DNA of 64,000 bases from a bacterium (GTDB lineage: Archaea > Micrarchaeota > Micrarchaeia > Micrarchaeales > CABMGC01): assembly GCA_021829835.1 (NCBI GenBank), contig JAKBPE010000001.1, positions 352 to 64,351 on the forward strand. Direction: 5' to 3'. Numbering within the stretch: position 1 is the stretch's first letter; each line of letters opens with the position of its first letter. Positions 12,701-51,781 of the stretch are shown in pieces. The notes beneath the pieces are model-generated. The model had not been told where the DNA came from. It ran no database searches and was given only the letters and a program-made list of their open reading frames with translations. The translations under genes were made by a program, and so were the position numbers.

Positions 12701-15700
12701 CCCGATTCCGGTGCATATGCAGAATCCTTTACTAGATAAGAGTAAGTAGTGTTCTGTGAAGGGCTTTCCGTGATGCCCTGTGAGACTGCGTTTGCAATAG
12801 GTGTCTGGCATGAACTCCCGGTATACCATTGATATGAATATGGTGTTGTGCCTCCTGAAGGGTTTGCAGTGAGGGTAACAGATTGTCCGGCATTGATTGC
12901 AGTTGATGATGCAGTTATGCTTCCTATGTTAAGTGGGGAATTTACAGTTATAGTATCAGGAGAGGAACATACAAATACAGAGCTGTTTGTTGTTTCGCCT
13001 GCCCCGTAAGAGTATGTCGACGATGAAGTTAACGAAATATTATATGAAGAGGATGTCGCACCTGAGATTGCGGTTGAACAACCGCTGCCTGAATACCATT
13101 GGTATGTGTATGGGAAAACTCCACCTGAAGGATCAGCAGAGAGAGTAATATATTGCCCTGAGTCAATTGTTGGGCTTGAAGGATAAATGGGATTTGCAAC
13201 AAGAGGCGTGCTTTGGCTATATCCTTTTGGAGAGAAGTCGAATGCTTCATCAAGCCCTGTTGATGTTCTTGCAGAAGTATCGGTTTCTGCAGGATATGTT
13301 GAAAGGATCCAGTTATAGGCCTGTATTGCTGTTGCGTTATTGTCTATGGAGATTATGCCAGCACTGGACATAAGAGCCAGTTGTATGTAGTTAATTTCTC
13401 CTTCGGCAGTATTTGCGCTTTGATTGTACAGGGATGTTCCAATTGAGCCTGAAGCTATATCTGCTTCCCAAACCTGTTTCCATGTCTGTAGTACTGGATT
13501 TGTTACGTTTGCTGAAGAAATATTCAAGACAGGAAGGTCGTATGTTATTCCTGCTTCAGGATTAAAGCCTTCAGGACCAGCAGTAAATCTTCCTGATATG
13601 AAATTAGTCATCCATTTTAGATAAGTCAATGCTCCTGGAACGTTACGTTCTACAGCCGCTATTACAGTGCTCGCGAAGTAATCTTGCTGCCATGGAGCCT
13701 GAATGCAGTTGGTGCCTGGACATGGGTAATAACCATATGCGCCTACGATATATCCATGAGGTTGTACAGAACTGAATGGGGAACTGCTATTTACATATGT
13801 GTCGTATAGATACTGGAATTCTACAGCTTGGTTGTTCTTGAAGAAAGAACTAAGCGGATCTGAATTTGGATCTGCAAATGCAGCATCTATTATCTGGCGA
13901 AGTCTCCAAGCATAGCCTCTTACTTGATCTGCGCCTTCTGCTACGATTACTCTGTTGTTATGCCATGTTGTATATCCAGGATTTACATCAGTAAGGGCAA
14001 ATGTTCCTTGTGCGTCTACCTGGTCAAGATAATGCATGCTGCCAGTAAGAATGTAAGGAATATATGATAGATCTGGCCAATGTGCAGGATCTATACTGAC
14101 TGGATCGCTTCCGTCTGCAAATTGTGTAACACATCCATAAAGCTCGTAACATGCACCATATGGAGGCGGATCAACACTAATATTTGGAAATGTTCCGGTA
14201 TTTAGATAAGAATTTCCTTGAGGATAGTAATAATCCCAGCCCATCGCGCCTGCCTGAGTGTCTGTAAGTTGTGCAAAATTTGATACAGTCTGGTTTTGGC
14301 TGAGCAGCCATGCCGCATTCCAGGTAGGCTGAGGTCCTATATCAGGCCTTCCACCACTTGCTGGCATGTAGAAAGTGATTCCAAAACCGCTCATTATTGT
14401 ATTGTATGCTATTGCAGTTGCAGAATTGCCTAGATTCTCAAGTGAAGAGGCGTAATACGAGACAAGCCCTTTTGAAAGTCCATCTGAAAGATTGTAGGGC
14501 TGTATTGCACCTACCTGTTCCAACTCTGCTATATTATGTACTACGTTTACTTCAGGAGCTCCGTTGCTCCAGGTTTCCCAATTCCATTCGGTGTAGTGAG
14601 GCTGGAAGATATTATTCTTTATAAGAATAGGTTGATTATTTTCTTTGATTACAAGATTATAATTTACGTCGCCACCTACAGGCTGCATTGCGTAATCATT
14701 TGCAAATAACACATCAGTATGTGTTGATCCATCTGCGTATTTTCTTATGTCGAACATTACATGGAATGATCCGCTGACATTGTAATTCACCCTTCCTTCA
14801 ACGCTTTGATTGCCTTGAAGCCAGTATGTAACCGAATTTGATGCGAGTGCGTTTGCAAGCACCGTTGATGCGTTTATCTGATAGTTAGTAACATTATAAG
14901 AAAGGGGTATTTTTTCAATTTCTGAACAATACCAGACAGTACAGCTTACATATAGATATCTGCCATGTGGGCTAATAGTTAACACTTTTGGATTTCCTCC
15001 TGCCTGAGAAGGATTGATGTCTGAGATTGTCCTTATTGTTTTATTTGTAGTCAGATTGAATACAGTTATTGTGCTTCCTGCGTCATCTGAATAGCCATCT
15101 AGTATATATGCAATTGTTCCTGAAGGGTTTATTGTCATTGCTCCTGGTCCGTAACCTATATTAGTTATATTGTAGATAGGCTCTTCTGTTGTTGTATTTA
15201 TTACACTTATTCTTGAACCTTGTATATCCAATACATAAACAAGGTTGCCTGAAGGACTTATTATTGCGATTGATGGACCAGAGTTTGCATAATTTCCTAC
15301 TGTTATTTCCTTAGATATGGTATCGTTGTTAAGATTTACCACACTTACTTGAGATCCTTGCCATACGCCATCATTGTTTACCCCTAGATCGGTAACATAT
15401 GCAGTTGTTCCTGAAGAGGTTATTTCTATGTCGCTTGGGTTCCAGAAGCCACTTATAGTGTTTGTTACTTGATAGGTGGTAAGATTTAATGTGCTTATGG
15501 AGTAATTTCCTGAATTTATTACATAGGCGAGTGGTTTTGTTGGGCTTAGGCGTATAAATGAGGGTCCATCAAATCCTTTTATAACACTGGTTACCTGATG
15601 AGTTACAAGATTTACTATCTCAATAGTGTTATTTCCCTGTGATGCCACATATGCGCTTGTTCCGGAAGGGAATAGAACTATGCTAATTGGTTCAGATCCT

Positions 15701-16653
15701 ACAACTAATGCATTTGTTACCTGCATTGTTGATGTGTTAAAGGTTAAGAGAGTAGAGTTTTCATAGCTTAGTGCATAGCCAGTTGTGCCGTTTGGATTTA
15801 AGGCCATGGCATATTTATGTTCTGTTGTTCCTGTCTGTGTTGAATATGCAGAGAGTGCGTTGGTTATATTGGGTTCACTCATTAGAGTGAGATTCACCTG
15901 CATGTTGTATCCGTTGGAAAGAATGCTCTGCAGTGTGAGTGGAATTTCCGGGTTTGCAGATACAATTCTAAACATTCCTTTGTAAAGTGAATCTGGAGGC
16001 ATTTGTGGGGCGTCCAATGTTACTACAACCATTTTTTCAGTACCGTCCGAATAGGTATTCTTTACGTCTGTCTGAACAGGATACTGAACTCCGTTTATAA
16101 CAGCTGCTATCGAATCACCAATTGGCACTTTCCCTCTTGGAAATATTTCAGCAAATGTTATGTAATGGGAGGGTATTGTCGATGGTTGGTTATTTTGTAG
16201 GTCGAAACTTACAATGTCACTGGAATTCACAGGCTGAAGCATTTTCGGTATGAAAACAAGATATGATGAAGTTAGATTGTAGCCTGCTGAGCAGGAAGAA
16301 ACAGAGGAATTTGTAGATTCTGTTACAAGATAGCTGTATACCATTGATACCTGTGGCTCGGGAGCAGCATATGTTGATGATGTAGCTCCAGATATTGCAT
16401 CTGTAGAGCTGCAGGCAGGATCCCCAGATTCGTTTGCATACCATTGATAATCGTATGAGGATGTGCCGCCTGAAGGATTTGCTGTCAGGGTTACATTGGG
16501 ACTTATTGATTGGTTGTATGTGCCTGCAGTTATATTGCCTGCGGTGATTAGGGGAGATGTGAAAACAGGAGTTTTAGATTGATTAGGTTTGTTTTGTGAG
16601 AGGTAAGAATACCTAAATGTGATAAATGAGATTATTAGGATTACCATCGCCAT
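9796..16653 (-). CDS. Giant (2285 aa) membrane-anchored mosaic surface protein combining Ig-like repeats, a YVTN-type beta-propeller, an unknown central domain, a right-handed beta-helix and a C-terminal anchor module
   Basis: The ORF is uninterrupted with a hydrophobic N-terminus. It has SGGTxPYxYQWY Ig-like repeats and repeated ...AYV.N.G.N.ISV.N..T blades at about 14940-15810. Beta-helix turns occur at about 11700-12640 (NNSYFYNNQDGLL, ENSEFYHNG, IDNRIQD, IENNTIEQG). A Gly/Ser linker lies at about 10868-10985, followed by a C-terminal TM helix (LIVAIAVILIYLIYTTML) and a basic tail. N-x-S/T sequons are dense. Confidence 0.85.
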   Translation of the reverse strand: MAMVILIISFITFRYSYLSQNKPNQSKTPVFTSPLITAGNITAGTYNQSISPNVTLTANPSGGTSSYDYQWYANESGDPACSSTDAISGATSSTYAAPEPQVSMVYSYLVTESTNSSVSSCSAGYNLTSSYLVFIPKMLQPVNSSDIVSFDLQNNQPSTIPSHYITFAEIFPRGKVPIGDSIAAVINGVQYPVQTDVKNTYSDGTEKMVVVTLDAPQMPPDSLYKGMFRIVSANPEIPLTLQSILSNGYNMQVNLTLMSEPNITNALSAYSTQTGTTEHKYAMALNPNGTTGYALSYENSTLLTFNTSTMQVTNALVVGSEPISIVLFPSGTSAYVASQGNNTIEIVNLVTHQVTSVIKGFDGPSFIRLSPTKPLAYVINSGNYSISTLNLTTYQVTNTISGFWNPSDIEITSSGTTAYVTDLGVNNDGVWQGSQVSVVNLNNDTISKEITVGNYANSGPSIAIISPSGNLVYVLDIQGSRISVINTTTEEPIYNITNIGYGPGAMTINPSGTIAYILDGYSDDAGSTITVFNLTTNKTIRTISDINPSQAGGNPKVLTISPHGRYLYVSCTVWYCSEIEKIPLSYNVTNYQINASTVLANALASNSVTYWLQGNQSVEGRVNYNVSGSFHVMFDIRKYADGSTHTDVLFANDYAMQPVGGDVNYNLVIKENNQPILIKNNIFQPHYTEWNWETWSNGAPEVNVVHNIAELEQVGAIQPYNLSDGLSKGLVSYYASSLENLGNSATAIAYNTIMSGFGITFYMPASGGRPDIGPQPTWNAAWLLSQNQTVSNFAQLTDTQAGAMGWDYYYPQGNSYLNTGTFPNISVDPPPYGACYELYGCVTQFADGSDPVSIDPAHWPDLSYIPYILTGSMHYLDQVDAQGTFALTDVNPGYTTWHNNRVIVAEGADQVRGYAWRLRQIIDAAFADPNSDPLSSFFKNNQAVEFQYLYDTYVNSSSPFSSVQPHGYIVGAYGYYPCPGTNCIQAPWQQDYFASTVIAAVERNVPGALTYLKWMTNFISGRFTAGPEGFNPEAGITYDLPVLNISSANVTNPVLQTWKQVWEADIASGSIGTSLYNQSANTAEGEINYIQLALMSSAGIISIDNNATAIQAYNWILSTYPAETDTSARTSTGLDEAFDFSPKGYSQSTPLVANPIYPSSPTIDSGQYITLSADPSGGVFPYTYQWYSGSGCSTAISGATSSSYNISLTSSSTYSYGAGETTNSSVFVCSSPDTITVNSPLNIGSITASSTAINAGQSVTLTANPSGGTTPYSYQWYTGSSCQTPIANAVSQGITESPSQNTTYSYLVKDSAYAPESGCSSPVTISVVPIIITSNATTLTVGPGLEYHSIAAAIANATSGDTVKVAAGTYTNDFPETINFNLTLQGVGGVVNMVATEQPPNDKGILDVGGSGVTVTITHFSFSGAFSDPSSSNGAGIRYEGGNMIINNSYFYNNQDGLLAAPDPNGTILIENSEFYHNGVYNVSSVGYGYTHNMYINDIKLFTIKHSYVHAASVGHEIKSRAQNTVIIDNRIQDENGTASYSVDLPNGGNALIENNTIEQGPFSGNPAIISFGEEGNLHSNSNLQVINNTILNDLNSSSAVAVVNDDPNVTASILGNKFYGLTSSQIATGPNTQTNNILLTKEPRLNTSSVFRSYDKVELVGNTSSGLPQQLFLSYNYSVDLKYPKFNSTISLSSIFNRSILENIVVANETANTSIPSLGSKPIKILVLYINESNPYSLNPESNLTVSYACKYSSVTPYLLNGSVWSPIPILYSSSNPCSIKFNIPNDPVVGVFASETPLSVSISPSTQQSITTGQSLTFTSSVSGGTPPYTYTWISGPSSSCTSDLQISGTNTSSYTATPSSTAYYCLEVTDSAGYNTYSQTTEITVSSASTPTPPSGGGGGGGGGSGSSGSSGSSGSGTAGAGGGGTFKPSVINLNSTCYLVTNLTNPDFAVVNFTGKSFNIRANYISPTDTGITIDGLQYTLSPNSTEIIGGTASYDYIIRLLNISYIPAVHTIASNVCVVPLPGKKILNVTTLPNIQNTGRSITLYNSTNSNLSITINSTKGHQSIINYEKTSSVFAINPTKAIPSSALISITNSTQESPAPPSEYTKLYVLNITYPQYSNLSINADLHYSCSMPQNETFPFEYSGNSWKMITNFTINSKLCTISFQIPKDILLALMKSNVPKSKPSTTNVSKTNTTTIKKTVNTTSVSTSQNSSTEKSSLLIALESKKAEISILIVAIAVILIYLIYTTMLKDKGKKNTPNNGEPNPKNSNIHVPPPVTY

Positions 16654-19127: not shown

Positions 19128-22100
19128 CTATTTTTTCCCAGGTTGGGAATCTGATTTGGAGATTATTTTTGGATCGGCAGGCGGCGGCTTCTGTTTTTCT
19201 GCGGTGTATTTCCCTTTTATGCGCAGGTAATAATAGACAGACAGGATTACTATTGCAATAAATATAGCCAGCAGGAGGTATTCATAGGTATTATATTGAA
19301 GATATTCGGAATTTGTTGTGTTGTTCACTTCAGATGTATTTACAGTGATTATATGGGTGCTTATATTTCTTTTTACAGTATGATTTGATATTTTGGATGT
19401 GTTGATAGTTGGAGTTGAGTTTGTAATTTTTGTATATCTACCGAGTGCAATTATAGGATCGCCCCCAGTAGTTAAAGATACAGTACAAGATTTTGAATTG
19501 ACAGTGAATTGTGTAAACTGTTCCCATGAAGAATTTGACAAAGCGAATGGGAATATCTTGTAGAAAGGTATGCTGCAGTTGTATTTCATTGTTATGGTCA
19601 TGGTTGTGTTTGTAGGAATTGCATTTTGAAGATTTATTCCTTTCACGGAAATATTCTGAACCAGAATCTTATTGTATCCTTGAGGCAGAGGAGGCAGATA
19701 TTGTGCAAGTGTTAAGTTTCTTACAGTAAATCTCTGTTGGGCAGTAAATGCAGATGTTATATTTACAGTTGTTTTCTCAGCCAAAAGATTTAGCTGTACA
19801 GGCACTGCGTTGTAGGTCATAATGTCATAAGTCTCGTTCTGGCCAGTTATATTAATAGGTTTGAGATTTGAAATAGCAATTACCTTTAATGCTATTGTGC
19901 TTTTTACAGGAGTATCGGAAAGGTTGTATATTGACATGTTATATAGGTAGGGTTCACCTGAAGCTTCAAAGATGGTTTTTGATTGGTTTGGATATAGAAC
20001 ATAGTTTTTGCCATTTACAGTTATACCTGCATTTGCATTAGTTATAAAGTTTTCTACAAAATCTAATTTTGTACCTAGAAGTGTTAAATTAAATACAGTT
20101 AGGGGAGTTATGCCGAAGACAACAAATCCGTCATTTATACTTGCCATTTGCGGTTTTGTTCCGGGAAAATTTATATTTGTGCTGTTGCCGACCGCTCCAC
20201 CGCCTGATGATGAGCCGCCTGAAGGACCTGATGAAGTTCCTGAAGAGGTTGAAGGAGAGGAAGAACTACTGATAGATATATCTGCAGTTGGTGAGTTTTC
20301 GATTTCATTTACTGTTGCTGAATCTGTGACTGTGACGTAGTATTTGACGGTCTGCGGCGTTGCGCCTGCAGGTTCCGTAAATATTGAGGATATTGCACCT
20401 GGAATTGCATTCGCGGAGCCTGAAGTGTCATTGTACCATTGGTAGAAGTAAGGAGTAGTACCTCCTGAAACTGATGCGTTTAAAGTGATTGTCTGTCCAG
20501 AAGAATAGGTACCTGATGGAGGGCTTATTGTTGGAGTACCAAGTGCGAGATTGGCTGTGACTAAATCCGTTCCTGATGTTGCGGATGTTGGCGTTGTGGC
20601 TGAATCGGTGACTATGTAGCAGTAATAGGTTGAGGAAGATGGCGAAGCGTGAATAGTATTTGAGGTTGCGCCTGTGATTGCAGTATCGGACGAGCAGGTT
20701 GATGATGTTCCATTATACCATTGGTAGGTGTATGGCGTCGTTCCTCCTGACGGATTTGCGGTTAATGTTACGCTCTGACCTGAATCTATTGTCGGGGATG
20801 AAGGCGTTACTGATCCTGCAGATAGTGCGGTGTTTACCACATCGGAATCTGTTGCGGATGTAGTTGATTCTGGCGTTGTGGCGGAATCGGTGACTATGAT
20901 GTAATATTTGACTGTCTGTGCGGTTGCGCCTGCGGTTTCCGTGAATGTTGCGGATGTTGCGCCTGGAATTGCATTCGCGGAGCCTGAAGTGTCGTTGTAC
21001 CATTGGTATGAATATGGAGTCGTTCCGCCTGAAACTGATGCGGTCAGCGAAACGCTCTGACCTGCGTCGTATGTTGCAGATGAAGGAGAGATTGTCGGCG
21101 TTACGAGTGCGGAATTTACTGTGACTAAATCCGTTCCTGATGTTGCGGATGCTGGAGATGTGGCGGAATCCGTGACTATGTAGCAGTAATATGTGTTTGA
21201 TGTTGGACTTGCGGAATACGTGGATGACGTTGCGCCTGAAATTGCGGTATCTGATGAGCACGTCGATGACGTTCCACTATACCATTGGTAGGTGTATGGC
21301 GTCGTGCCTCCTGACGGATTTGCGGTTAATGTTACGCTCTGACCTGAATCTATTTTTGGAGATGAAGGCGTGACTGCGTTCGCCAGCAATGGGGAGTTGG
21401 TTGAATAAGTTAAAGTGTTGAAAGTTGTGGAGGGAGTGGTTGCACTATCTGTTATAAAGATATTAGCAGTAAATGTGCCTGCGCCCCATATGCTATTTTG
21501 AACAAAAGAGATACTATTTGATGACACTGTTATGCCAGTATAAAGCGCATTATAAACTAAAGAGCCGATTGAATTGTAAACTAAAAAGTTATAAGTGTAG
21601 GGAGAGGTACCGGTTCCACTTGTATCTGCAGTTAATACCTGAGTCTGACCTTCATCTATTAATGAATTTGAAACTTTCCACGAATTTGAGAGGGCAGAAT
21701 TGACCGAAAACGGATTTGAATAAATGGTGTTGGCTATAACATTTGTTGTGGCGGAATCGGTAATTATTGTATTTTCTACCAGATTCCCAAGCCCTACCAT
21801 GGAATTTTGGACTTGTTCGCAGTTTGATTTGGAATTAGCAGTAACAGAACCGAATAAAGCATCAGCTTCAATACTATTTGTGTTTGCTTGTTGAACAATT
21901 AAAAAATTATAAGTAAATGGCGAAGTTCCTCCGTTGGTGCTTGCTGTGAGGCATACATATTGCCCTGCGTCCAACAAGGTGTTGCTTGGATTTGTAATTG
22001 TTGGGACCAATGCAGGATTTAATGTCATCACTCCGCTTTCAACGCTATTTAATGTAACAGGAGTCGTGGCAGAGTCTGTGACAATAACATTTGCCACTAC

Positions 22101-25001
22101 AGTATTTCCAATATATTCGGATGGGAAAGCCCATAAAAAGTTTGCTGAGGCGCTGCTGCTGACTGCATTGTATGAATTTGTTATAAAAGAATCAGTTATA
22201 CTGTTTACAACTATTACATTATAGGCATAATTCGGAGTTCCTCCTGTCCATAATGAATTAAAATTAACATTCTGGCCATAGTCATAACTTTCTGCTGTTG
22301 CTGGTGTGGCAGTCGGTTGAGTCATAACAGAATTGACTATATATGTTTCTGTTGTGGAATTTGAAGTTTCCGGAGTAGTAGCTGAATCTTTAACTTCAAT
22401 ATAATACTTCATTGTTCCTGTCATTCCTGCTGTTGCCGTGTATGTAGATAAAGTTGCTCCACTTATTACTGTTGGTGTTCCTGTTGTATCGTTATACCAT
22501 TGATAAGAATAAGGTGTAGTTCCTCCTGAAACTGATGCGGTCAGCGAGACGCTCTGACCTGAGTCATAAGTTGCAGATGAAGGAGAGATTGTCGGCGTTC
22601 CGAGTGCGAGATTAGCTGAGACTGTATCTATCGGAGAACCTGAAACCGCATTAGGTGTGGCAGAGTCTGTCACAATATAGCAGTAGTATGTAGTTGAAGT
22701 TGGAGATGCTAAATAATTTGCGGAAGTGGCGCCTGAAATTGCGGTATCTGATGAGGAACAAAGCCCTGAACTTGAAGAGGCAGTATACCATTGGTATGAA
22801 TATGGGGTTGTTCCGCCTGAAACAGCTGAAATTAAATTGACTGACTGCCCTGAATCTAATGTAGGAGAATAAGGAGTGATAGGATCTGCTAGTAATGCAT
22901 TATTTGCCCCTGCCATTGAACCTTCGCTTGTAGTAGGCATGATGTCTTTTGGAGGGGCGGTTCTAACCCTATACCATTGTGTATACTCGTTAGATGCAAA
23001 AGACACCCCACCATAATAAACTGCCCCTAATTCTGGGAATAATAAGCCTGAAGCATGAACATAGATGCTGAAAAATGGGTCAGTGTAGGTTTGATAGGTT
23101 ATTCCTAAATGGTCTGAAACATTATAAAGCATAGAATATATGCCAAAGGCATCTGGTGGGTAGTTAGTAGTGTAGAAAATGCCACCATTACCATCATATC
23201 CACAGACATTACATCCTTCTTGTGTTTGCCCTAAAAAGACAATAGAATCATTGCCTACATTATCCATGAAGCCACCGATTGTAAAAGAACCATCATATGT
23301 TGATGGGGTTGTTGAGAGTGCCTCAAAGACATTTCCTGCGGCATATCTTGTTGTGGCATTTATTGCTTCGGCATTGGCAATTGTAGATGAACCTATTAAT
23401 GTAATTCCATTATTTATGGTATAAGTTATTCCGTTTACATGCCATTTTGAACTGAGAGTCGTTCCGGCAAAATCAGAATAGAAGCTAAACACGTTGTTTC
23501 CATTGTCATACTCTGCATAGTCAGAACACGTCGCAGTCGCGGCTGGGTTCGCACAGCTGAGCTGAGGCGCTTCCCCTGTGCTCACTCCGTTCAGCAAGTT
23601 TGTGCTGGTGCTTGCGATTCCGAGGTAAATCGTGTAGGGGATTGTCATCGATGCTGGTAGCTCGTTGACTGTGTTCGCTCCGAGGTTCACCCACCAGAGG
23701 ACGTTCGCTGATGTTGAGAGTGCTGTGGACTGCTCGTTCAGGACGTTTCCTTCCAGCCAGCTTGGAATTATCGTTCCGTTGGCGTAGAAGAACTCGGTGT
23801 TCATCAGGTTGGAGGCTAGGTAGCTCGAGAACGGGATGGCGTTGAAGCCTATAATGTTTCCATTGCTTGAGACGCCTATCGCTAGAGGCGTGTTTGCCGA
23901 GACGGCTACTGACTGCGTGTTGATGATGTTGATTGGGATGTAGTAGAGGATGTTGGCTGGGCTGACTACTGGATCGTCGAGGCTGTAGTTCTGGTTTCCA
24001 AGGCCCTCGAATGTGAAGTTGTAAGGCTCTGTTGGGCTTAGGCTGAATGTCTTTGTGATGCTTACTGAGCCCATGGTGTTGTCCGAGAAGCTGAGAATCG
24101 TGTTCGAGCCTGCCTGTATCAAGGCGTTGAACGGCACTCTGTTTCCCTGAACCAGATGGCTGATTAGCTTAACTGTGATGTTGAGAGGCGCACAGTCGTT
24201 CAGCCCCCAGCATCCGTTGTAGACAGCTACAGGCAGATGGTAGCTTCCTGGCTTGGTCAGCGTCTCGTTGAAGAGCCTTGAGCTTAACTGGATGTAGGAG
24301 TAGCTTTGGTTCTTGCTTACCTGAAATTTGTTGAATTGGACTGAGCCATAGATTGAATTGTAAGTTGCGTTTATTTTGTCTGAGCCTGCTGGTATCGGCT
24401 TTGCGTTACTGTATAGTGAACCATATGGCAGAGTAGCAGTCTGATTGTGGATTAAGCCTAAGTTTATTGGTGAATTTGGGTTTACGCCTATAGCTTCCAA
24501 AGCGTTGGATTGCTGTGAGTTCCACTCGGTACTCCATTGGATAGAATTAAAGGAAGTGGAGAAATACAGTATTGTTGGTTTTGATAAGGAAATTACATTA
24601 GATACTGGCACTGCGTTGTTTATAATGTAGTTCATCCCATTGTAGCTTATTGAATTTTGACCTGGTTCGTAAAGAACATTTCCATTTAAAGTGTTTGCTG
24701 TAAGCATGTTCATGGATATTTGGAAGATGTCTGTGTAACTTGTGATGTTTAGAGACCGGTTGGTTAATCCTGAAAGAGGTCCAAGCCGAATAAGATAAGT
24801 TGAGCCTGGGGGCAGGCCGATGATTTCCAGCATGGCATTTTCTGGGCTGCTTGTGGATTGGGAAGTGGACTGATTTGGAGATGCGTGAAGCATAAACATT
24901 AAAGAAACAATCAGAACGGCTGAGATTGTCAGAATTGTTGAGAAGAAAATTAAATAATCATAGTCGATTCTTTTGAAGAAATCTGTCTTGCAATTATTCA
25001 C
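19128..25001 (-). CDS. Giant (1957 aa) membrane-anchored surface protein with a DUF2341-like plus LamG-like N-terminal region, about 11 Ig-like repeats and a C-terminal anchor module
   Basis: The ORF is uninterrupted with an N-terminal TM segment (IFFSTILTISAVLIVSLMFML). A DUF2341-like pattern is present (YYIPINIINTQS...FFYANGTIIPSWLEGN...NVLWWVNL...YTIYLG), followed by a concanavalin/LamG-like stretch. Next comes the Ig-like array, then a Ser/Gly linker at about 20195-20275. The C-terminus is a TM helix (LLLAIFIAIVILSVYYYL) plus a basic tail. Confidence 0.85.
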   Translation of the reverse strand: MNNCKTDFFKRIDYDYLIFFSTILTISAVLIVSLMFMLHASPNQSTSQSTSSPENAMLEIIGLPPGSTYLIRLGPLSGLTNRSLNITSYTDIFQISMNMLTANTLNGNVLYEPGQNSISYNGMNYIINNAVPVSNVISLSKPTILYFSTSFNSIQWSTEWNSQQSNALEAIGVNPNSPINLGLIHNQTATLPYGSLYSNAKPIPAGSDKINATYNSIYGSVQFNKFQVSKNQSYSYIQLSSRLFNETLTKPGSYHLPVAVYNGCWGLNDCAPLNITVKLISHLVQGNRVPFNALIQAGSNTILSFSDNTMGSVSITKTFSLSPTEPYNFTFEGLGNQNYSLDDPVVSPANILYYIPINIINTQSVAVSANTPLAIGVSSNGNIIGFNAIPFSSYLASNLMNTEFFYANGTIIPSWLEGNVLNEQSTALSTSANVLWWVNLGANTVNELPASMTIPYTIYLGIASTSTNLLNGVSTGEAPQLSCANPAATATCSDYAEYDNGNNVFSFYSDFAGTTLSSKWHVNGITYTINNGITLIGSSTIANAEAINATTRYAAGNVFEALSTTPSTYDGSFTIGGFMDNVGNDSIVFLGQTQEGCNVCGYDGNGGIFYTTNYPPDAFGIYSMLYNVSDHLGITYQTYTDPFFSIYVHASGLLFPELGAVYYGGVSFASNEYTQWYRVRTAPPKDIMPTTSEGSMAGANNALLADPITPYSPTLDSGQSVNLISAVSGGTTPYSYQWYTASSSSGLCSSSDTAISGATSANYLASPTSTTYYCYIVTDSATPNAVSGSPIDTVSANLALGTPTISPSSATYDSGQSVSLTASVSGGTTPYSYQWYNDTTGTPTVISGATLSTYTATAGMTGTMKYYIEVKDSATTPETSNSTTETYIVNSVMTQPTATPATAESYDYGQNVNFNSLWTGGTPNYAYNVIVVNSITDSFITNSYNAVSSSASANFLWAFPSEYIGNTVVANVIVTDSATTPVTLNSVESGVMTLNPALVPTITNPSNTLLDAGQYVCLTASTNGGTSPFTYNFLIVQQANTNSIEADALFGSVTANSKSNCEQVQNSMVGLGNLVENTIITDSATTNVIANTIYSNPFSVNSALSNSWKVSNSLIDEGQTQVLTADTSGTGTSPYTYNFLVYNSIGSLVYNALYTGITVSSNSISFVQNSIWGAGTFTANIFITDSATTPSTTFNTLTYSTNSPLLANAVTPSSPKIDSGQSVTLTANPSGGTTPYTYQWYSGTSSTCSSDTAISGATSSTYSASPTSNTYYCYIVTDSATSPASATSGTDLVTVNSALVTPTISPSSATYDAGQSVSLTASVSGGTTPYSYQWYNDTSGSANAIPGATSATFTETAGATAQTVKYYIIVTDSATTPESTTSATDSDVVNTALSAGSVTPSSPTIDSGQSVTLTANPSGGTTPYTYQWYNGTSSTCSSDTAITGATSNTIHASPSSSTYYCYIVTDSATTPTSATSGTDLVTANLALGTPTISPPSGTYSSGQTITLNASVSGGTTPYFYQWYNDTSGSANAIPGAISSIFTEPAGATPQTVKYYVTVTDSATVNEIENSPTADISISSSSSPSTSSGTSSGPSGGSSSGGGAVGNSTNINFPGTKPQMASINDGFVVFGITPLTVFNLTLLGTKLDFVENFITNANAGITVNGKNYVLYPNQSKTIFEASGEPYLYNMSIYNLSDTPVKSTIALKVIAISNLKPINITGQNETYDIMTYNAVPVQLNLLAEKTTVNITSAFTAQQRFTVRNLTLAQYLPPLPQGYNKILVQNISVKGINLQNAIPTNTTMTITMKYNCSIPFYKIFPFALSNSSWEQFTQFTVNSKSCTVSLTTGGDPIIALGRYTKITNSTPTINTSKISNHTVKRNISTHIITVNTSEVNNTTNSEYLQYNTYEYLLLAIFIAIVILSVYYYLRIKGKYTAEKQKPPPADPKIISKSDSQPGKK
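20280..22920 (-). repeat. In-frame array of Ig-like coding repeats inside the 1957-aa gene, with three A+B repeat pairs that are near-identical at DNA level
   Basis: Segments at 20707-20800 and 21271-21363 match almost base for base at an offset of 564 bp (188 codons). Similar matches link 20398-20470 to 20959-21060, and 21001-21110 to 22500-22610. Confidence 0.85.
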
Positions 25002-32072: not shown

Positions 32073-32179
32073 CGGGCCCGGCGGGAATTTCATGGCACTG
32101 CAGTCTTCCGCATTGCCTTTTGAACCCGCGGCCTTTTCCTTAGGACGGAACCGATCTATCCAAGCTGAGCTACGGGCCC
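32073..32179 (-). tRNA. tRNA-Arg(CCU) with a putative non-canonical intron of about 32 nt in the T-loop (between positions 58-60)
   Basis: The reverse complement is GGGCCCG-TA-GCTC-AGCTTGGATA-GATC-G-GTTCC-GTCCTAA-GGAAA-AGGCC-GCGGG-TTCAAA[AGGCAATGCGGAAGACTGCAGTGCCATGAAAT]T-CCCGC-CGGGCCC-G. The acceptor and T stems are perfect only if the bracketed insert is removed. The D stem and the 27-43 pair each have one mismatch. Confidence 0.65.
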
Positions 32180-32186
32180 ATTATCA

Positions 32187-47473: not shown

Positions 47474-47491
47474 ATTGCCGAGAAAGGGATA

Positions 47492-47682
47492 CAAACAAAA
47501 AGTAAATTTGGACTAGGTGTAAATCACACCTTAGGTCTTCCCGTTGCGAACAGGGCGCTCTGGACTTTTGTCGTTTTTCTCCAGGGATTCGAGCCACCGT
47601 AGATTTTATTTTCTAAAATGCGAACATATGTGTCTCGCACACAGATTATAGCGCATTTGAAAATATAAACAGATACGGTGCA
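47492..47682 (-). repeat. Left-most copy (A) of the island repeat: 25-nt direct repeat, diverged pseudo-tRNA-Ala (47509-47565) and conserved hairpin (47626-47646)
   Basis: The reverse complement contains ...CCCTG-TTCGCAA-CGGGA...AGGTG-TGATTTA-CACCT-AGTCCA, keeping the Ala CGC anticodon loop. CACCGTAGATTTTATTTT...ATGCGAACAT(C/A)TGTGTC..CGCACACAGATTAT is shared with copies at 49.68 and 50.69 kb. Confidence 0.7.
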
Positions 47683-47792
47683 ATTCTAGCCGTAATCGCA
47701 CCCACTGTTTTAGATTAACTTTTCCAAAAAGGTTATGCACCCAGACTTTTTGGTAAAGCTTTTCGTAAAAAGATTTCACATGTCACCCATTC

Positions 47793-49091
47793 CTATGTCA
47801 GGGCCCATTCCCAGAACGGCAGATACACTATCTTTATTCCATCTACATCCTCACTGCCATTGTAATCATAAGTAATTATGATTCCTTCCTTAAGCTTAAG
47901 CGCTTTTGCAGCTTCAACTAATGCTGAAGTTTCCCTGTCTTTTACATCAATGCTAGAAAGTTCATAACATACTTGTATTAGTTTAGTAGGTTTCCAGCCC
48001 ACAATGAAATCGATCTCCTTACCAGATCTCAGTTTTAGATAGTGAATATTGTCTGATACTTTTTTCCTTCTGAGCAACTCGATAAACACTGCATTTTCAA
48101 GTGCCCTTCCCTTGTCTATATCTGTAAACAATTTTGATAATCCAATGTCAACAATGTAACTCTTTACTTGCCTAGCAAAACGCTTTCTTGGGCTTTTTAA
48201 ATATTGTTCCAAGATTTCAGCAAAGAATACGGATTTGGAGTATTCTAAAAAGTTAAGAATTGTGACTCTGCTAATCTCAAAGCCCATACTGTTGAAATAA
48301 TTCTGGGCCTTTGTTGAGCTGAAATAAGTTGAATAGTTACTAGCAATTATCTTAAGGAAAATGTTTAATGCCCCCGTTTCCCTCAAATTATATCTCTTTA
48401 TTATGTCCCTAAAGAATATGGCATCAAAGTATGATGATAAAAGATCCATTTTTCTTGTAGTATCATTTGAAAGTATAACTTCTGGAAAAGATCCGTATTC
48501 AAGAAATTCGTCTAGTGCTTTTAGTACGGTACCTTTCTTTGAAGAAAATTTTATGCCACTAATCTCCGCGGTTATCCCTTTCGATTTTAGCATCTCACTA
48601 AAAGAGAACGGATAAACAGTATAGGAAAGATTTCTGCCTGCAAGCGCCGTTGCTATTTCGCTGCTAAGTAGCTCTGATGATGACCCAGTTATTATAATTC
48701 TATACTTCTTAGTGTCATATACCTTCCTTATCCATTTATCCCAATTCTCTACGTTTTGAATCTCGTCTAAGAACAGATATACAATTCCCCCCATGGGATT
48801 GAATATTTGCGAATGTGCGATTAGAAGATTATCCATGTCTGTTGCTTTAGTAGCTATTAGGCGCTCATTCTCAAAATTAACATAAATAATATTGTCTTTT
48901 GTTACCCTTCTTTTCATTAGCGCTTTAATGTGCTGAAACATTAAGCTTGTTTTGCCCGAACGTCTTACACCTGCAATGACAATTACTTTATCTGCATTTA
49001 AATCTAACGTAATTTTCCTTTCTATGACTTCTGGGAGTTCCATCTCTTTCCAGAGAGTAAGCACATACTTAAAGTCATCAATTCTAGCCAT
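47793..49091 (-). CDS. AAA+ ATPase of the COG1373 type (AAA_14 + DUF4143)
   Basis: Walker A is AGVRRSGKTS and Walker B is YLFLDEIQ. The product is 432 aa with a DUF4143-like C-terminal part. Confidence 0.75.
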   Translation of the reverse strand: MARIDDFKYVLTLWKEMELPEVIERKITLDLNADKVIVIAGVRRSGKTSLMFQHIKALMKRRVTKDNIIYVNFENERLIATKATDMDNLLIAHSQIFNPMGGIVYLFLDEIQNVENWDKWIRKVYDTKKYRIIITGSSSELLSSEIATALAGRNLSYTVYPFSFSEMLKSKGITAEISGIKFSSKKGTVLKALDEFLEYGSFPEVILSNDTTRKMDLLSSYFDAIFFRDIIKRYNLRETGALNIFLKIIASNYSTYFSSTKAQNYFNSMGFEISRVTILNFLEYSKSVFFAEILEQYLKSPRKRFARQVKSYIVDIGLSKLFTDIDKGRALENAVFIELLRRKKVSDNIHYLKLRSGKEIDFIVGWKPTKLIQVCYELSSIDVKDRETSALVEAAKALKLKEGIIITYDYNGSEDVDGIKIVYLPFWEWALT

Positions 49092-49265
49092 ATTGGTATA
49101 GTATGCTATACATATTTATATGCTTTACGTTTAGTATACTGTACGTAAATAAAGAGATCCGGTTCGTTAACTCTGCATCCCTACATCTTTTGTGCAATTC
49201 CATCTGATATGCATGCTGAAACTTGGAAAGGTTAAGTTTTACAGGATTTGCTAGGCAATTGGATG

Positions 49266-49290
49266 CAAACAAAAAGTAAATTTGAACTAG
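49266..49290 (-). repeat. Second copy of the 25-nt direct repeat caaacaaaaagtaaatttgRactag
   Basis: It matches 47492-47516 at 24 of 25 positions. It contains only the last few nt of a tRNA 3' end (CTAGTTCA) plus the 3' flank. Confidence 0.7.
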
Positions 49291-49345: not shown

Positions 49346-49570
49346 TTACTGACTTGCAATTTCTATTATCTTATCTTTACTCGCTGCACCTTTTATTATT
49401 CTTATACCTGCCCTTTTCACATTGAAATACGACGAAAGAGCACTTATTACAGCTATATTAGCACGACCTTCAATCGCCTTTTCTTTAACCTTAAGTTTAT
49501 AACTTGTAGGGTTTATCTTTTGCAATACCTCGAATTTGGAATTTGGAATCACTTTTACTTTTATTAACAT
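49346..49570 (-). CDS. DUF167 (YggU/UPF0235) family protein
   Basis: The 74-aa sequence IKVKVIPNSK...KLKVKEKAIEGRANIAVISALSSYFNVKRAGIRIIKGAASKDKIIEI matches the DUF167 pattern. Confidence 0.7.
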   Translation of the reverse strand: MLIKVKVIPNSKFEVLQKINPTSYKLKVKEKAIEGRANIAVISALSSYFNVKRAGIRIIKGAASKDKIIEIASQ

Positions 49571-49584
49571 AGTAACACTTAGAG

Positions 49585-49974
49585 ATTTGGACTCGGCAGG
49601 GATCTCGCCAGCGACCTCGCCGTTGCGAACGAGTGTGAGTCCCTAGCTTTTTCGTCTAGCTTTTGTTTCATTTTAGCACCGTAGATTTTATTTTCGTTAA
49701 ATACGGACATCTGTGTCTTCGCACACAGATTATGGCGGGTTTAAAAAATAATATCGTCGAGATCGCATTCAGACCCGCTTGCGGATTCGTCACCAGATTT
49801 TTCCTCAGCTTCTTGATAAAACTTCTTCCCAAGAAGTTTTGTGGACTCGACAAGACATCAACAATTGAGTATGATGTATAAAAACCATTATCTAAATGGT
49901 GTTTGATGGTATTTGATTGTATTTACTTACATTCACTAGCATTCTATGGTCTTGACTCCAACTTTCCTAGCAAG
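49585..49974 (-). repeat. Composite island repeat, copy C (pseudo-tRNA, hairpin 49709-49730, 23-nt palindrome 49818-49840, tail running into the vapC 3' end)
   Basis: By eye it aligns nearly base for base with 50591-50998 (a few substitutions and one indel of about 20 nt). Confidence 0.85.
49588..49643 (-). pseudogene. D-armless pseudo-tRNA-Ala (copy C)
   Basis: The reverse complement is GGGACTCACACTCG-TTCGCAA-CGGCGAGGTC-GCTGG-CGAGATC-CCTGC-CGAGTCCA. It shares the anticodon loop and the 3' acceptor end CGAGTCCA with the bona fide tRNA-Ala at 51710-51781, but it lacks the D arm and has a mispaired T stem. Confidence 0.7.
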
Positions 49975-50322
49975 TTCTGCCTGATTGCCATCGCAGGTTA
50001 CTAGCTCGTAAGAGTTCTTTAGCGCCGCAGCTACGAACATAGCATCGTATATAGATGAATTGTATTTCTTAGCAATTTCAAAGGCCTTAATGATATGCTT
50101 TTTTTCTTCTATAAATCTGAAAGTACTTGGGTACCTCTCAAGGATCTCCACCACTTTCTTATAATCAAGCTCATTCTTACGGACTTTCTTCAGAAGTGCG
50201 CTGCCTAACTCTATCATGGAAAGTTCTATGCTTATGGGCTCATAGAGATACACCTCCACATCTTCCCATCCTGGCTCTTCTGAAAAGTACTTGACAATAA
50301 CGGAACTATCAATGAGTCTCAT
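49936..50322 (-). CDS. vapC: PIN-domain ribonuclease toxin
   Basis: The N-terminus MRLIDSSVIVKYF carries the catalytic Asp. Later acidic residues occur in IYDAMFVAAAL and VTCDGNQ. It overlaps the upstream antitoxin gene by 14 nt. Confidence 0.8.
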   Translation of the reverse strand: MRLIDSSVIVKYFSEEPGWEDVEVYLYEPISIELSMIELGSALLKKVRKNELDYKKVVEILERYPSTFRFIEEKKHIIKAFEIAKKYNSSIYDAMFVAAALKNSYELVTCDGNQAELARKVGVKTIEC

Positions 50323-50527
50323 TTCTATCTTCTCTTATCGATTTTACCGCAAATCCTGCTTTTGATGGCTTTGAGGTTTTAACAATTTCTTTCAATTCGA
50401 GTAAAACTTTTTTGGCATTTGCCTTCCATGCCATATCCTCTATATAATCTTTTGGGTTTATGCCAGCTTTTTTAAGCTGCTCCATAGTACCACGCTTTAC
50501 TCTAATACTTATTACTTCGGTGTCCAT
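50309..50527 (-). CDS. vapB: RHH/CopG-like antitoxin; start trimmed to the Met at 50527
   Basis: MDTEVISIRVKRGTMEQLKK shows a beta-strand plus helix RHH pattern. The longer ORF (to 50677) would run through the pseudo-tRNA repeat, so I prefer the internal start. Confidence 0.65.
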   Translation of the reverse strand: MDTEVISIRVKRGTMEQLKKAGINPKDYIEDMAWKANAKKVLLELKEIVKTSKPSKAGFAVKSIREDRNETH

Positions 50528-50540
50528 AATTATATTATGG
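50524..50540 (-). promoter_or_regulatory. Inverted repeat CCATAAT-TAT-ATTATGG overlapping the vapB start codon (candidate operator)
   Basis: A perfect 7-bp inverted repeat was read directly and covers the ATG at 50525-50527. Confidence 0.35.
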
Positions 50541-50590
50541 CATACAGATATATAAACATTTTTGTTTACATAATTGATTACATAAATAAT

Positions 50591-50998
50591 AAGTGGACTC
50601 GGCAGGGATCTCACCAGCAACCTCGCCATTGCAAACGGGTGTGAGTCCCTAGCTTTTTCGTCTATATTTCTAGCCATTTAGTTCACCGTAGATTTTATTT
50701 TTTCAAATGCGAACATCTGTGTCTTCGCACACAGATTATGGCGGATTTAAAAATATAAACAGATACGGTGCAGATATCGTCGAGATCGCATTCAGATCCG
50801 CTTGTGGATTCGTCGCCAGATTTTTCCTCAGCTTCTTGATAAAACTTCTTCCCAAGAAGTTTTGTGGACTCGACAAGACATCAACAATTGAGTATGATGT
50901 ATAAAAACAATTATCTAAATGGTGTTTAATGGTATTTGATTGTACTTGCTTACATTCACTAGCATTCTATTGTCTTGACTCCAACTTTCCTAGCAAGC
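50591..50998 (-). repeat. Composite island repeat, copy D (pseudo-tRNA, hairpin 50715-50736, palindrome 50841-50863, tail running into the second PIN gene 3' end)
   Basis: See copy C. This copy additionally retains the TATAAACAGATACGGTGCA block found in copy A (47664-47682) but deleted from copy C. Confidence 0.85.
50594..50649 (-). pseudogene. D-armless pseudo-tRNA-Ala (copy D)
   Basis: The reverse complement is GGGACTCACACCCG-TTTGCAA-TGGCGAGGTT-GCTGG-TGAGATC-CCTGC-CGAGTCCA. It has the same architecture as copy C with a few substitutions, and the anticodon loop is now TTTGCAA. Confidence 0.7.
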
Positions 50999-51389
50999 CT
51001 ATTAGCTCCTTTGTGGAAATAATACGTATTCTTTTTTGTGTGCTAAAATCCAGATCATGGCTCCATATAAGTGTATTTTCATAGAGTGCACAAGAGATGT
51101 AAAGCCAGTCCTTAGAATCATCTACGAGGCTTGCCGCAGCAAGGAGGAAAGGTCTAAGATTCTTGTCTGGAACGAGGATAAGCTGGCCAAGAATCTTGTC
51201 AACTAATCTGTAAAATTCTTCATTGTTCAGTCCTGATTTTTTTCTTACTTCGGCAAGATGGCGTGCAAATTCATCAACAATGAATTCTGGCGCAAAAAGG
51301 GACAGCGCCGGGTTAAAGAACAGTTTTCTTGTTGTTGAATCTTTTATGAGGCATGCAAACAGCATGTTTGCATCAACGGTTATTTTCAT
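50967..51389 (-). CDS. PIN-domain toxin (second family, unrelated in sequence to 49936-50322)
   Basis: MKITVDANMLFACL carries the N-terminal Asp, and acidic residues occur at DDSKDW and SHDLDF. It overlaps the upstream antitoxin gene by 17 nt. Confidence 0.75.
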   Translation of the reverse strand: MKITVDANMLFACLIKDSTTRKLFFNPALSLFAPEFIVDEFARHLAEVRKKSGLNNEEFYRLVDKILGQLILVPDKNLRPFLLAAASLVDDSKDWLYISCALYENTLIWSHDLDFSTQKRIRIISTKELIGLLGKLESRQ

Positions 51390-51624
51390 TTAGGAGCGCC
51401 TCTGCATGTTTTGCAGCATTCTTTGCAATTTTTGCACTTATAGGCTTCCAAGTTTTCCAATTAAGTCTGCTCTTCTTAGCTATGCTTTCGGCTTCCTCAA
51501 AATCTGCAATTTTCTGTTCTATTACATTTCTTACTGCACTTGACCATTTGACATAGGAGTACTTCTCCATCTCCTTTTTCAACTCATCGCTTATCGAAAG
51601 GGTAATATTTGGCACATGAATCAC
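51373..51624 (-). CDS. RHH/CopG-like antitoxin (GTG start)
   Basis: ITLSISDELKKEMEKY..VKWSSAVRNVIEQKI shows an RHH pattern. The gene is coupled to the PIN gene. Confidence 0.65.
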   Translation of the reverse strand: MIHVPNITLSISDELKKEMEKYSYVKWSSAVRNVIEQKIADFEEAESIAKKSRLNWKTWKPISAKIAKNAAKHAEALLNENNR

Positions 51625-51709: not shown

Positions 51710-51781
51710 TGGACTCGGCGGGATTCGCACCCGCGGCCTTTTCGTTGCGAACGAAACGCGCTGCTACTGCGCCACGAGCCC
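51710..51781 (-). tRNA. tRNA-Ala(CGC), intact, 72 nt, no encoded CCA
   Basis: The reverse complement is GGGCTCG-TG-GCGC-AGTAGCA-GCGC-G-TTTCG-TTCGCAA-CGAAA-AGGCC-GCGGG-TGCGAAT-CCCGC-CGAGTCC-A. All stems pair, and the G3:U70 alanine identity pair is present. AT-rich TATA-like sequence lies upstream (51791-51825). Confidence 0.9.

Follow-up and report, generated by a model that had tools for sequence, protein, structure and literature searches.

Archaeal integrative elements that use tRNA genes as targets are known to integrate in tandem and to lose their integrase after integration (PMC8371274, PMC7253208), and their integrases carry distinct signatures, i.e., KxxR in the SSV1 type and YxxR in the pNOB8 type (PMC8371274). 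In bacteria, accretion has been described for integrative elements and cis-mobilizable elements (CIMEs; PMC5704250), as have tandem ssrA-specific islands in Dehalococcoides (PMC3146451). We analyzed a 64-kb stretch of DNA, referred to as the window, from a Ca. Micrarchaeota (DPANN) genome that originates from acid-mine-drainage metagenomes. In this window, two copies of a 400-bp composite repeat, termed C and D, bracket one toxin–antitoxin (TA) cassette on the 3' side of a tRNA-Ala(CGC) gene, and one edge of the repeat lies within toxin genes. We are fairly confident that the repeat is layered debris of tRNA-Ala-targeting integrative elements, together with one illegitimate fusion of toxin ends.

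Like the SSV1- and pNOB8-type elements, the elements described below integrate at a tRNA 3' end, have direct repeats of this tRNA 3' end on both sides and an integrase open reading frame (ORF) that overlaps the core of the attachment (att) site. Integrase-less remnants, tandem build-up at one tRNA gene and a cargo of defence, restriction–modification (RM) and TA genes are further common traits. By its signature, R..HxxR..Y, the Micrarchaeota integrase however falls into neither of the two classical subfamilies (PMC8371274), and the DPANN host, the size of 3.3 kb for an intact element and a conserved palindromic arm of about 100 nt also set these elements apart from known archaeal ones. With CIMEs and ssrA islands the locus shares serial insertion at one RNA gene, att-separated units and integrase-less units that keep their att sites. 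It differs from them in being archaeal, in having units as small as 0.8-1 kb, i.e., one TA pair, and in a gene-internal junction that fuses two toxin 3' ends. Full-text literature searches returned no description of such elements in Micrarchaeota; the host phylum, the integrase subfamily, the 3.3-kb element with its palindromic arm and the shared cassette ends appear to be new.

A composite repeat of tRNA, integrase and toxin gene ends

Copies C and D stand in direct orientation about 1 kb apart. Global alignment gave 360 identical positions in 385 ungapped columns (93.5%); with gaps counted, identity was 88.7% over 406 columns, and the 21 gap columns mostly belonged to one 17-nt deletion in C (BLASTN, E = 8e-149). 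Both copies begin at TGGACTCGG and end at CCTAGCAAG (49966-49974 and 50989-50997), and the DNA past this right edge is unrelated between them. An earlier reading of this DNA from its letters alone, referred to here as the original prediction, had described near-identical regions around one TA cassette, each with a pseudo-tRNA, hairpins, a 23-nt palindrome and an AT-rich tail, and with an edge inside the last codons of two PIN genes. The alignment reproduced all of this: every sub-feature was found in its place in both copies (Table 1), and the right edge falls within the final codons of the minus-strand genes PIN1 and PIN2.

Read on the tRNA strand, each copy starts with the last 13 codons and the 3' untranslated region (UTR) of the PIN1 cassette, followed by 8 nt of tRNA 3' end, a 29-codon remnant of an integrase gene (int), an imperfect palindrome of about 100 nt, which we call the central module, and a 60-nt tRNA-Ala 3' fragment (attR). 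The repeat is thus a stack of three layers, in which a PIN1 cassette 3' end, an integrase-element remnant and an attR follow one another. The pseudo-tRNA, the hairpin and the palindrome, originally taken as parts of a 3' UTR, turned out to be the attR, the int-upstream region and a 5' fragment of the integrase gene, respectively.

The pseudo-tRNA is a 3' fragment of tRNA-Ala, covering the D-loop through the 3' end; over 49 nt, it shares 80-84% identity with the intact tRNA-Ala(CGC) gene of the window. Such fragments have no 5' acceptor strand, and their T arms are broken in C, D, a further copy A in the window, L004, L006 and L007 (L numbers denote loci of related sequences). We rejected a functional tRNA or tRNA-like RNA, as the fragments gave no ARAGORN call and no Rfam match, either at the gathering threshold or at E <= 10. 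A split tRNA or a large D-loop intron was likewise rejected, the module having no 5' exon and many copies having decayed T arms. Across species, the tRNA part is more variable than the central module and shows CGC- or UGC-type anticodon arms with stems that match real isoacceptors, as would be expected if this part were repeatedly exchanged with the tRNA-Ala genes of the host. The fragments of C and D share derived changes such as GGCAGGGATCTC that are absent from other species (GTGTGAGTCC also occurs in L015). We therefore conclude that the whole 400 nt were duplicated or homogenised as a single unit.

The integrase layer was identified with a relative, L001, in which an ORF of 327 aa (L001:3212-4192, minus strand) matches PF00589 with E = 2.5e-10; a relative of this protein matches phrog_216. 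Its first codons are the translated T arm and acceptor of tRNA-Ala (..AAGANPAES). A tblastn search with this protein matched, on the minus strand of both repeats, precisely the portion with the palindrome, with 62% identity to residues 15-43 (E = 1.8e-5) and the common translation ESTKLLGKKFYQEAEEKSGDES[A/T]SGSECD. The start of the remnant coincides with CGAGTCCA, the 8 nt that end the tRNA. A longer integrase pseudogene covering residues 15-104 and interrupted by stop codons lies 3' of the second cassette, TA2, in L004 (E = 4e-11). The plus-strand ORF of 65-72 aa that had been noted as duplicated is the antisense of this remnant; it has no Pfam match and we rejected it as a gene.

The integrase belongs to a family of at least 446 proteins, of which all members with a named source come from Micrarchaeota. 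In many of them, the N-terminus as called is the translation of a tRNA 3' end, either that of tRNA-Ala or that of another tRNA, e.g., ..VAGANPAES. The catalytic residues are canonical, R..K..HxxR..H..Y (..THSLRHYAIT..), and invariant in 30 members. The only sequence match in the PDB was Pyrococcus abyssi XerA (4A8E, E = 2.6e-6). Full int genes were found in L001, L028, L030 and L031, whereas the window has just the 29-codon remnants.

A PIN2 toxin that ends in PIN1 gene DNA

Judged by gene order and domain content, both cassettes are of the VapBC type: a small antitoxin gene precedes and overlaps a PIN toxin gene, at 50309-50322 in TA1 (PF01850 toxin) and at 51373-51389 in TA2 (PF10130 toxin with an RHH_12 antitoxin). 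Unlike in known modules of this type, one toxin carries a chimeric C-terminal tail, i.e., the 3' end of the other toxin gene read out of frame. The claim that two unrelated toxins take their C-termini from the same DNA held up on comparison, as the PIN domains belong to different Pfam families and gave no BLASTP alignment (E = 12), and the shared DNA is read as ..ARKVGVKTIEC* in PIN1 and as ..LLGKLESRQ* in PIN2. The two antitoxins were unalignable, too.

These comparisons bear on the simplest account of two direct copies about 1 kb apart, which would be a plain tandem TA duplication followed by divergence, or a miniature inverted-repeat transposable element (MITE) or transposon that inserted twice. 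We consider this account highly improbable. The original prediction had itself named alignable PIN homologs as the mark of a plain gene duplication; with neither toxins nor antitoxins alignable, and with a large orthologous family of its own for each PIN, the gene-duplication version is refuted. A MITE should have left other traces, but the repeat ends have no terminal inverted repeats and no target duplications, and among 12 loci we found no non-tRNA site with a target-site duplication. Moreover, one edge of the repeat is an att boundary and the other a gene-internal junction. We also rejected a transposon on the grounds that every copy, at about 20 loci, contains a tRNA-Ala 3' fragment and that the surroundings are a tRNA-Ala island wherever they could be identified.

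Homologs of both toxins tell which end is original. Among 31 PIN1 homologs, 25 have 128 aa, and most end in ..QAE[LIV]ARK[VL]GVKTIEC or a close variant; in L001 and L004, PIN1 has the same end codons and the same AT-rich tail with no adjoining module. The PIN2 homologs, about 60 in number, have 136-137 aa and end in ..TKEL[IM]x[IM][IV]GSL(S); the native PIN2 3' ends read GGCATTGTAGGTTCGCTAAGTTAA in L020 and ATAGGCTCGCTAGGCTAA in L004. Only the PIN2 of the window, with 140 aa and present with the same sequence on 12 contigs, ends in ELIG-LLGKLESRQ. Also, native 3' flanks of PIN2 in L004, L020 and L023 are unrelated to the tail in the window. By these sequence comparisons, the PIN1 C-terminus is native and the PIN2 C-terminus foreign, and we therefore propose that one illegitimate junction joined PIN2 to the PIN1 3' end.

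At this junction, the PIN2 end has been replaced by the last 39 nt of PIN1, its 3' UTR, the CGAGTCCA boundary and the sequence beyond, so that the last ~9 codons, the stop and the 3' UTR of PIN2 consist of PIN1-derived repeat DNA read one frame off. PIN2 would thereby have been cut 4-10 codons short of its native stop and joined to the last 13 codons of PIN1 (39 nt including the stop). A breakpoint within toxin coding sequence, as originally proposed, is hence what the data show. It lies at or next to 50989-50999, either right behind CTAATAGG(C), where there is 1 nt of microhomology to the L020-type sequence, or within GGCT[C/T]GCTAGG, where 10 nt match the native end of the L004 type and an extra 9-nt deletion would be needed. 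The proposal that the repeat supplies a stop codon and 3' UTR applies to PIN2. As a generic service to any neighbouring cassette it fails, as the 39 nt and the AT-rich tail are native to PIN1. Nor does the G/T substitution (49948 versus 50971) set the stop positions: with either allele, the PIN2 frame reaches the same TAG (CCA TAG or CAA TAG) and the PIN1 frame the same TGC TAG, i.e., the frame alone fixes the stop.

Two histories could have led to this arrangement. A TA1-plus-remnant unit may have stood in tandem, by tandem duplication or integration, before TA2 inserted at the tRNA; a deletion from the PIN2 end into the proximal PIN1 end would then have removed one TA1 copy. Alternatively, a break near the PIN2 end may have been repaired by copying the paralogous module C through the tail into PIN1, with resolution by microhomology. 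Both would give the same product, and both fit. The PIN2–PIN1 fusion may represent a natural case of a toxin that tolerates a swapped C-terminal tail.

As a separate observation, the AT-rich PIN1 tail (50890-50967 on the plus strand, and also in copy C) gave a weak C/D-box match to snoR11 with 22 bits and E = 2.2. We rejected a C/D-box small RNA (sRNA) at this place, with boxes that are imperfect and a score to be set against the 50-bit gathering score; the match is probably due to chance.

Relatives, the central module and the integrase-less cassettes

To find relatives, we used two invariant stretches of the repeat on one genome per species, plus a metagenome scan. The core module was found in eight other Micrarchaeota species (L001-L008), in L025 and at three metagenome loci, which were the only ones that the scan added. 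The order at these loci is constant: a tRNA-Ala 3' fragment, a short spacer, the central module of about 100 nt and one to three "pal units" of 40 nt. The cargo genes differ from locus to locus and always lie on the tRNA strand. They comprise an AAA_14 ATPase (L002, L007), a BsaWI-type endonuclease with a methylase and a Schlafen/AlbA_2 protein (L005), ResIII with a methylase and a TnsA-like protein (L008), an SMC-like ATPase with a helicase/PLD protein (L003), TA1 (L001, L004), TA2 (L017, L025) and Fic (L004, L008). The suggestion to look for the repeat beside other cargo in other genomes was thus rewarded, as the module borders differing RM, defence, TA and ATPase genes in at least 12 other loci.

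One relative, L030, is a 4.5-kb contig with an intact 3.3-kb element, in which int starts inside an intron-containing tRNA-Ala(CGC) and the tRNA 3' end recurs as a perfect 31-nt copy 3290 nt after the first (Table 1). The five small ORFs of this element, like ORF190 of L001, had no Pfam or PHROG match. L028 is a syntenic chromosomal locus where a CCA-adding enzyme, tRNA-Ala(CGC) and the integrase are followed by 6.5 kb of restriction and defence cargo (Halo_RE, PDDEXK, Vsr, Dcm methylase, HATPase_c_3), then by a 110-nt "X element", pal units and a housekeeping gene. The intact tRNA-Ala abuts int in L027, L028, L030 and L031. Elements hence have an intact tRNA at one end and a direct repeat of the tRNA 3' end (attR) at the other. 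Integrase sequence lies beside the tRNA-proximal att site, in the window as remnants directly after CGAGTCCA and as full genes in L001, L028, L030 and L031. From the arrangement in L030 and L028 we therefore conclude that the central module is a conserved arm just inside attR. In a circular element it would sit immediately upstream of the att core and int, and the predicted attP of an L030-type element joins the module end ...GCGAATCCCGCCGAGTCCA to TAAAACTTCTTGGG.

Taken together, the stretch from 47.5 to 51.8 kb is best read as a hotspot of integration next to the tRNA-Ala(CGC) 3' end, where small elements with a tyrosine recombinase insert, their int ORF starting at or passing through the tRNA-like att core. 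Every insertion would restore the tRNA and leave a displaced tRNA 3' fragment, the attR, at the far end. As elements decay, the first ~30 codons of int, the int-upstream region with its palindromic central module and the attR would survive. Integrase-less cassettes, i.e., TA1 and TA2 and, in relatives, Fic, would later have used this tRNA end for insertion as well; CGAGTCCA bounds them, in some cases together with a 19-nt trailer.

The central module has the layout CACCGTAGATTTTATTTT .. ATCTGTGTCTTCGCACACAGAT .. AAATATAAACAGATACGGTG, and 15 copies from more than ten loci gave a mean column identity of 84%. On either strand it folds into an 88-nt hairpin (z = -4.9 and -5.5). This fold and the high conservation, together with a T5 run of the tail in both copies and the weak C/D-box-like match, could speak for a functional RNA or 3'-UTR element, e.g., a terminator, an sRNA or a tRNA-like processing signal kept for the ending or stability of toxin transcripts. 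We regard this as unlikely. In the 15 copies, a small sample biased by the search patterns, the covariation score was 0.055 compared with a shuffled mean of 0.058, and all five measures were equalled or exceeded by most of 500 shuffles. Although 90.5% of the cells were paired, only one pair had changed on both sides, and changes in the arms were uncompensated. The 17-nt deletion in copy C takes out a TATA-like box and one palindrome arm. Moreover, the module is also found behind RM, ATPase and defence genes, in the intact L030 it lies inside attR far from any toxin, and the tRNA-like part fails in ARAGORN and Rfam and has broken T arms in many copies. With a strong fold and no covariation, we rejected a structured RNA; the module behaves as a conserved DNA palindrome and not as a proven RNA.

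What the module may do instead is indicated by its sequence motifs. On the tRNA strand it contains TTTATATT, which we take to be a good archaeal TATA box, and a conserved ATG follows about 80 nt 3' of it, from which an ORF runs in frame through the tRNA-like core (..VAGAIPAES) in 9 of 16 copies. Many members of the integrase family have an int ORF in frame through this core. The frames vary, however; L030 is out of frame, and in L028 the ATG comes just after the tRNA. ORFs through the module were rejected as a conserved protein, since their frames differ between species. From the TATA-like box and the conserved ATG with its ORF through the core, we infer that the module is the promoter and 5' region of int, with a regulatory role, and that integration may separate int from it in an SSV-like logic.

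Further sequence similarities were seen next to the module. The arm upstream of the att core in L030 (3200-3290) carries segments homologous to the first ~50 codons of int (L001 ~4050-4140; window 49762-49848), which lie across the core. These segments, namely the pal units and ..GGGTGCGA[A/T]TAC.G..CCGTATC, occur as direct repeats on either side of attP and are candidate arm-type binding sites. The X element, about 110 nt, noncoding and conserved, contains a 15-nt palindrome, TGCGTTGGCAACGCA; in several elements it adjoins the pal units on their cargo side (L003 ~790-900, L008 ~3045-3150, L016, L028 12340-12450, L025 1-13) and had no Rfam match at gathering thresholds.

The cassettes that lack an integrase have ends of their own. 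In L020, TA2 stands alone between two copies of a 27-nt direct repeat, CGAGTCCATTTTCAGTTTACGAGGAAG, made of the 8-nt tRNA end and a 19-nt trailer, directly beside a Na+/H+ exchanger gene that is 4 kb further off in the window. The same TA2 unit with the same boundaries was found in five contexts (L020, the window, L004, L017 and L023-26). The otherwise unrelated TA1, TA2 and Fic cassettes have a common end of about 45 nt, TTGTAMWTCRWAYTCRAY followed after 10-17 nt by CGAGTCCA. This 8-nt tRNA-Ala end delimits them at other loci as well. TA2 and Fic also have the leading trailer TTTTCAGTTTACGAGGAAG in common. For TA2, TA1 and Fic, a cassette circle is predicted to have a junction of ...TTGTACATAACACTCGAC..CGAGTCCA joined to TTTTCAGTTTACGAGGAAG. 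None of the TA1, TA2, Fic and ATPase-plus-module-A units has a recombinase gene. Their movement may depend on an enzyme acting in trans or on homologous recombination across the repeats; alternatively, they may be all that is left of larger elements.

Chromosomal integron arrays such as the Vibrio superintegron are rich in TA cassettes. This locus resembles them in its small, unidirectional cassettes with many TA pairs and a conserved 3'-end repeat beside one fixed site. TA1, TA2 and Fic could accordingly be true mobile cassettes with a common 3' site of about 45 nt plus CGAGTCCA, on which a tRNA-Ala-specific integrase acts in trans, and the repeat a functional platform for recombination and expression instead of debris. 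The common end in three unrelated cassettes, the trailer shared by TA2 and Fic, the 27-nt repeats around TA2 in L020, one cassette in five contexts and the single orientation of all cassettes beside the tRNA would suit such a mechanism. We are nonetheless doubtful of it. Neither a circular cassette nor an empty site was seen among the sequences observed, the cassettes have their own upstream regions, repeats of 27-60 nt could equally serve homologous recombination, and the common end motif could be a decayed tRNA 3' half from one ancestor. IntI, attI, the Pc promoter and any attC-type folded site are all missing, the integrase is a generic PF00589 member, and the repeats are derived from tRNA and int, so that the likeness to integrons is one of analogy only. 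In the same tentative sense, the tRNA-Ala locus may be a platform where one-operon cassettes (VapBC, RHH-PIN_2, Fic and possibly the ATPase) are shuffled in trans by a family-specific tyrosine integrase, a reading that has a small chance of being correct; the invariant palindromic module would then be a regulatory or arm-binding platform of the integrase, and a genome of about 1 Mb would possess a swappable defence and addiction array.

The tRNA-Ala island and its meaning for Micrarchaeota

The whole cassette array lies 3' of tRNA-Ala(CGC), on the same strand down to 47.5 kb, and is interspersed with three tRNA-Ala 3' fragments in the orientation of the real gene. On the tRNA strand, the order is tRNA-Ala, the RHH_12 antitoxin with PIN2, repeat D, antitoxin with PIN1, repeat C, DUF167, junction repeat B, the AAA_14/DUF4143 ATPase, module copy A and a 30-nt partner (47487-47516) of junction repeat B. 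Junction repeat B and this partner bracket the ATPase and module A as a unit. Module A, the third copy of the core module, is older and shares 86-90% identity with the modules of L001-L008. Compared with the copy C reference, the fragments at 50594, 49588 and 47505 show 63-84% identity; for the real tRNA-Ala, identity to copy C is 80% over 49 nt. In L007, L028 and L030 the tRNA-Ala(CGC) gene is syntenic and adjoins the CCA-adding enzyme.

Table 1 Features of the tRNA-Ala island, its repeats and reference loci. Positions refer to the window unless a locus is named.
Feature	Position	Strand	Remarks
tRNA-Ala(CGC), intact	51710..51781	-	ARAGORN; Rfam tRNA 65.6 bits; putative integration target (attB/attL)
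TA2 antitoxin, RHH_12	51373..51624	-	PF26688 precomputed for identical gene in L009; overlaps PIN_2 start
PIN2, PIN_2 toxin with hybrid C-terminus	50967..51389	-	PF10130, E = 4.8e-21; 140 aa; ends ELIGLLGKLESRQ
Repeat copy D, whole composite unit	50594..50997		
PIN1 end copy in D, last 12 codons and stop	50959..50997	-	Alignment with 49936-49974
tail1 copy (PIN1 cassette 3' UTR) in D	50873..50958	-	T5 run (TTTTT) 3' of stop on coding strand; 96% identical to 49850-49935
8-nt tRNA-Ala 3'-end remnant in D	50865..50872	-	TGGACTCG on plus strand, CGAGTCCA on tRNA strand; cassette boundary / att core remnant
Tyrosine integrase gene remnant in D	50785..50871	-	Codons ~15-43, ESTKLLGKKFYQEAEEKSGDESTSGSECD; carries 23-nt palindrome and CCGCTTGTGG hairpin
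Central module in D	50684..50790		~100-nt imperfect palindrome; 8-bp hairpin 50715-50736; TTTATATT on tRNA strand
tRNA-Ala 3' fragment in D (attR remnant)	50594..50653	-	Anticodon loop UGC-like; T arm degenerate
TA1 antitoxin, 73 aa	50309..50530	-	88% identical orthologs upstream of PIN1 in L001, L004
PIN1, VapC-type toxin	49936..50322	-	PF01850, E = 4.7e-14; native C-terminus
Repeat copy C, whole unit	49588..49974		
PIN1 3' end in C	49936-49974		
tail1 in C	49850-49935		
8-nt tRNA-Ala 3' end in C	49842-49849		TGGACTCG on plus strand
Integrase remnant in C	49762-49848	-	
Central module in C	49677-49760		Hairpin 49709-49730
tRNA-Ala fragment in C	49588-49647		
Hairpin ATCTGTGTCTTCGCACACAGAT	49709-49730 (C), 50715-50736 (D)		8-bp stem; by alignment
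CCGCTTG[C/T]GG	49775 (C), 50798 (D)		By alignment
23-nt palindrome	49818-49840 (C), 50841-50863 (D)		By alignment
DUF167 gene	49346..49570	-	PF02594, E = 2.7e-15; between repeat C and junction repeat B
Junction repeat B, 30 nt	49261..49290		tRNA-end remnant and trailer; 93% identical direct repeat of 47487-47516
AAA_14/DUF4143 ATPase	47793..49091	-	Pfam; cargo of oldest unit; L002 orthologous arrangement, 91% nucleotide identity
Module copy A	47505..47780		Degenerate tRNA-Ala fragment ~47505-47565; central module 47595-47690; integrase-5'-like pal units to ~47780
Cassette terminal motif	49849, 50872; L004 2156, 2969; L008 1674; L020 1027; L023 4499	- (window)	
L030 tRNA-Ala(CGC)	L030 40-141		29-nt intron
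L030 int	L030 96-1079		Starts inside tRNA; followed by five small ORFs
L030 pal unit and central module	L030 ~3200-3390		One pal unit
L030 tRNA 3'-end copy	L030 3402-3432		Perfect, 31 nt; 3290 nt from first

A metagenome contig, L011 (ERZ27237444 k141_821351), matches the window with 99.97% identity over a segment that starts at 44001 or earlier and stops exactly where tRNA-Ala has its 5' end (51781). Past this point it has a different genome context, with a CCA enzyme of ~67% nucleotide identity and no DEAD helicase. Either lineages have recently exchanged DNA here, by transfer or by recombination with the tRNA as its boundary, or L011 is an assembly chimera.

Several points weigh against the debris of tRNA-Ala-targeting elements as a full account. 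Among the sequences observed, no circular or empty-site form was present, IMG/VR gave nothing related with two DNA patterns, one protein and one profile, and the 64-kb window contains no intact integrase, as tblastn found the two fragments only and ten candidate ORFs had other functions. Mobility of the TA cassettes is deduced solely from direct repeats and varying context, and L011, which would support a tRNA-bounded transfer, could be a chimera. Moreover, conservation of the central module exceeds that of the adjoining tRNA fragment, which a fossil model does not fully explain and which suggests a current function; part of this conservation was, however, forced by the search patterns, of which the first fixed 32 nt and the second ~30 nt.

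Other observations concern tRNA genes and the remaining window. Two relatives have a canonical intron of 29-30 nt in tRNA-Ala(CGC) (L007 3824-3925; L030 40-141) that is not present in the window. An intron-containing tRNA of 113 nt at 105-217 (plus strand) matched Rfam and had no ARAGORN call. Positions 32073-32180 (minus strand), which have the ArgRS gene on one side and an unannotated 369-aa ORF on the other, resemble, by eye, a tRNA-Arg(CCU) with an insert of ~30 nt in the T-loop (GGGCCCGTAGCTCAG..TCCTAA..GCGGGTTCAAAAGG[..]GAAATTCCCGCCGGGCCC); this sequence gave no ARAGORN call and no Rfam match even at E <= 1, and the insert may be a non-canonical intron. Two giant minus-strand ORFs (9796-16653 and 19128-25001; 2285 and 1957 aa) with 282-nt tandem repeats are probably surface proteins; for the 1957-aa protein, faint Ig-like Pfam matches are all that is on record.

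For annotation, an odd repeat can now be read as a record of successive insertions at one tRNA gene, and scars in DPANN genomes become recognizable that would otherwise be called small ORFs. The analysis points to a family of very small tRNA-Ala-specific integrative elements in Micrarchaeota and to a variable island of TA, RM and defence genes at a fixed locus by the CCA-adding enzyme. Together, the element family and the island provide an entry point for studies of gene flow and of the turnover of defence genes in ultra-small symbiotic archaea.

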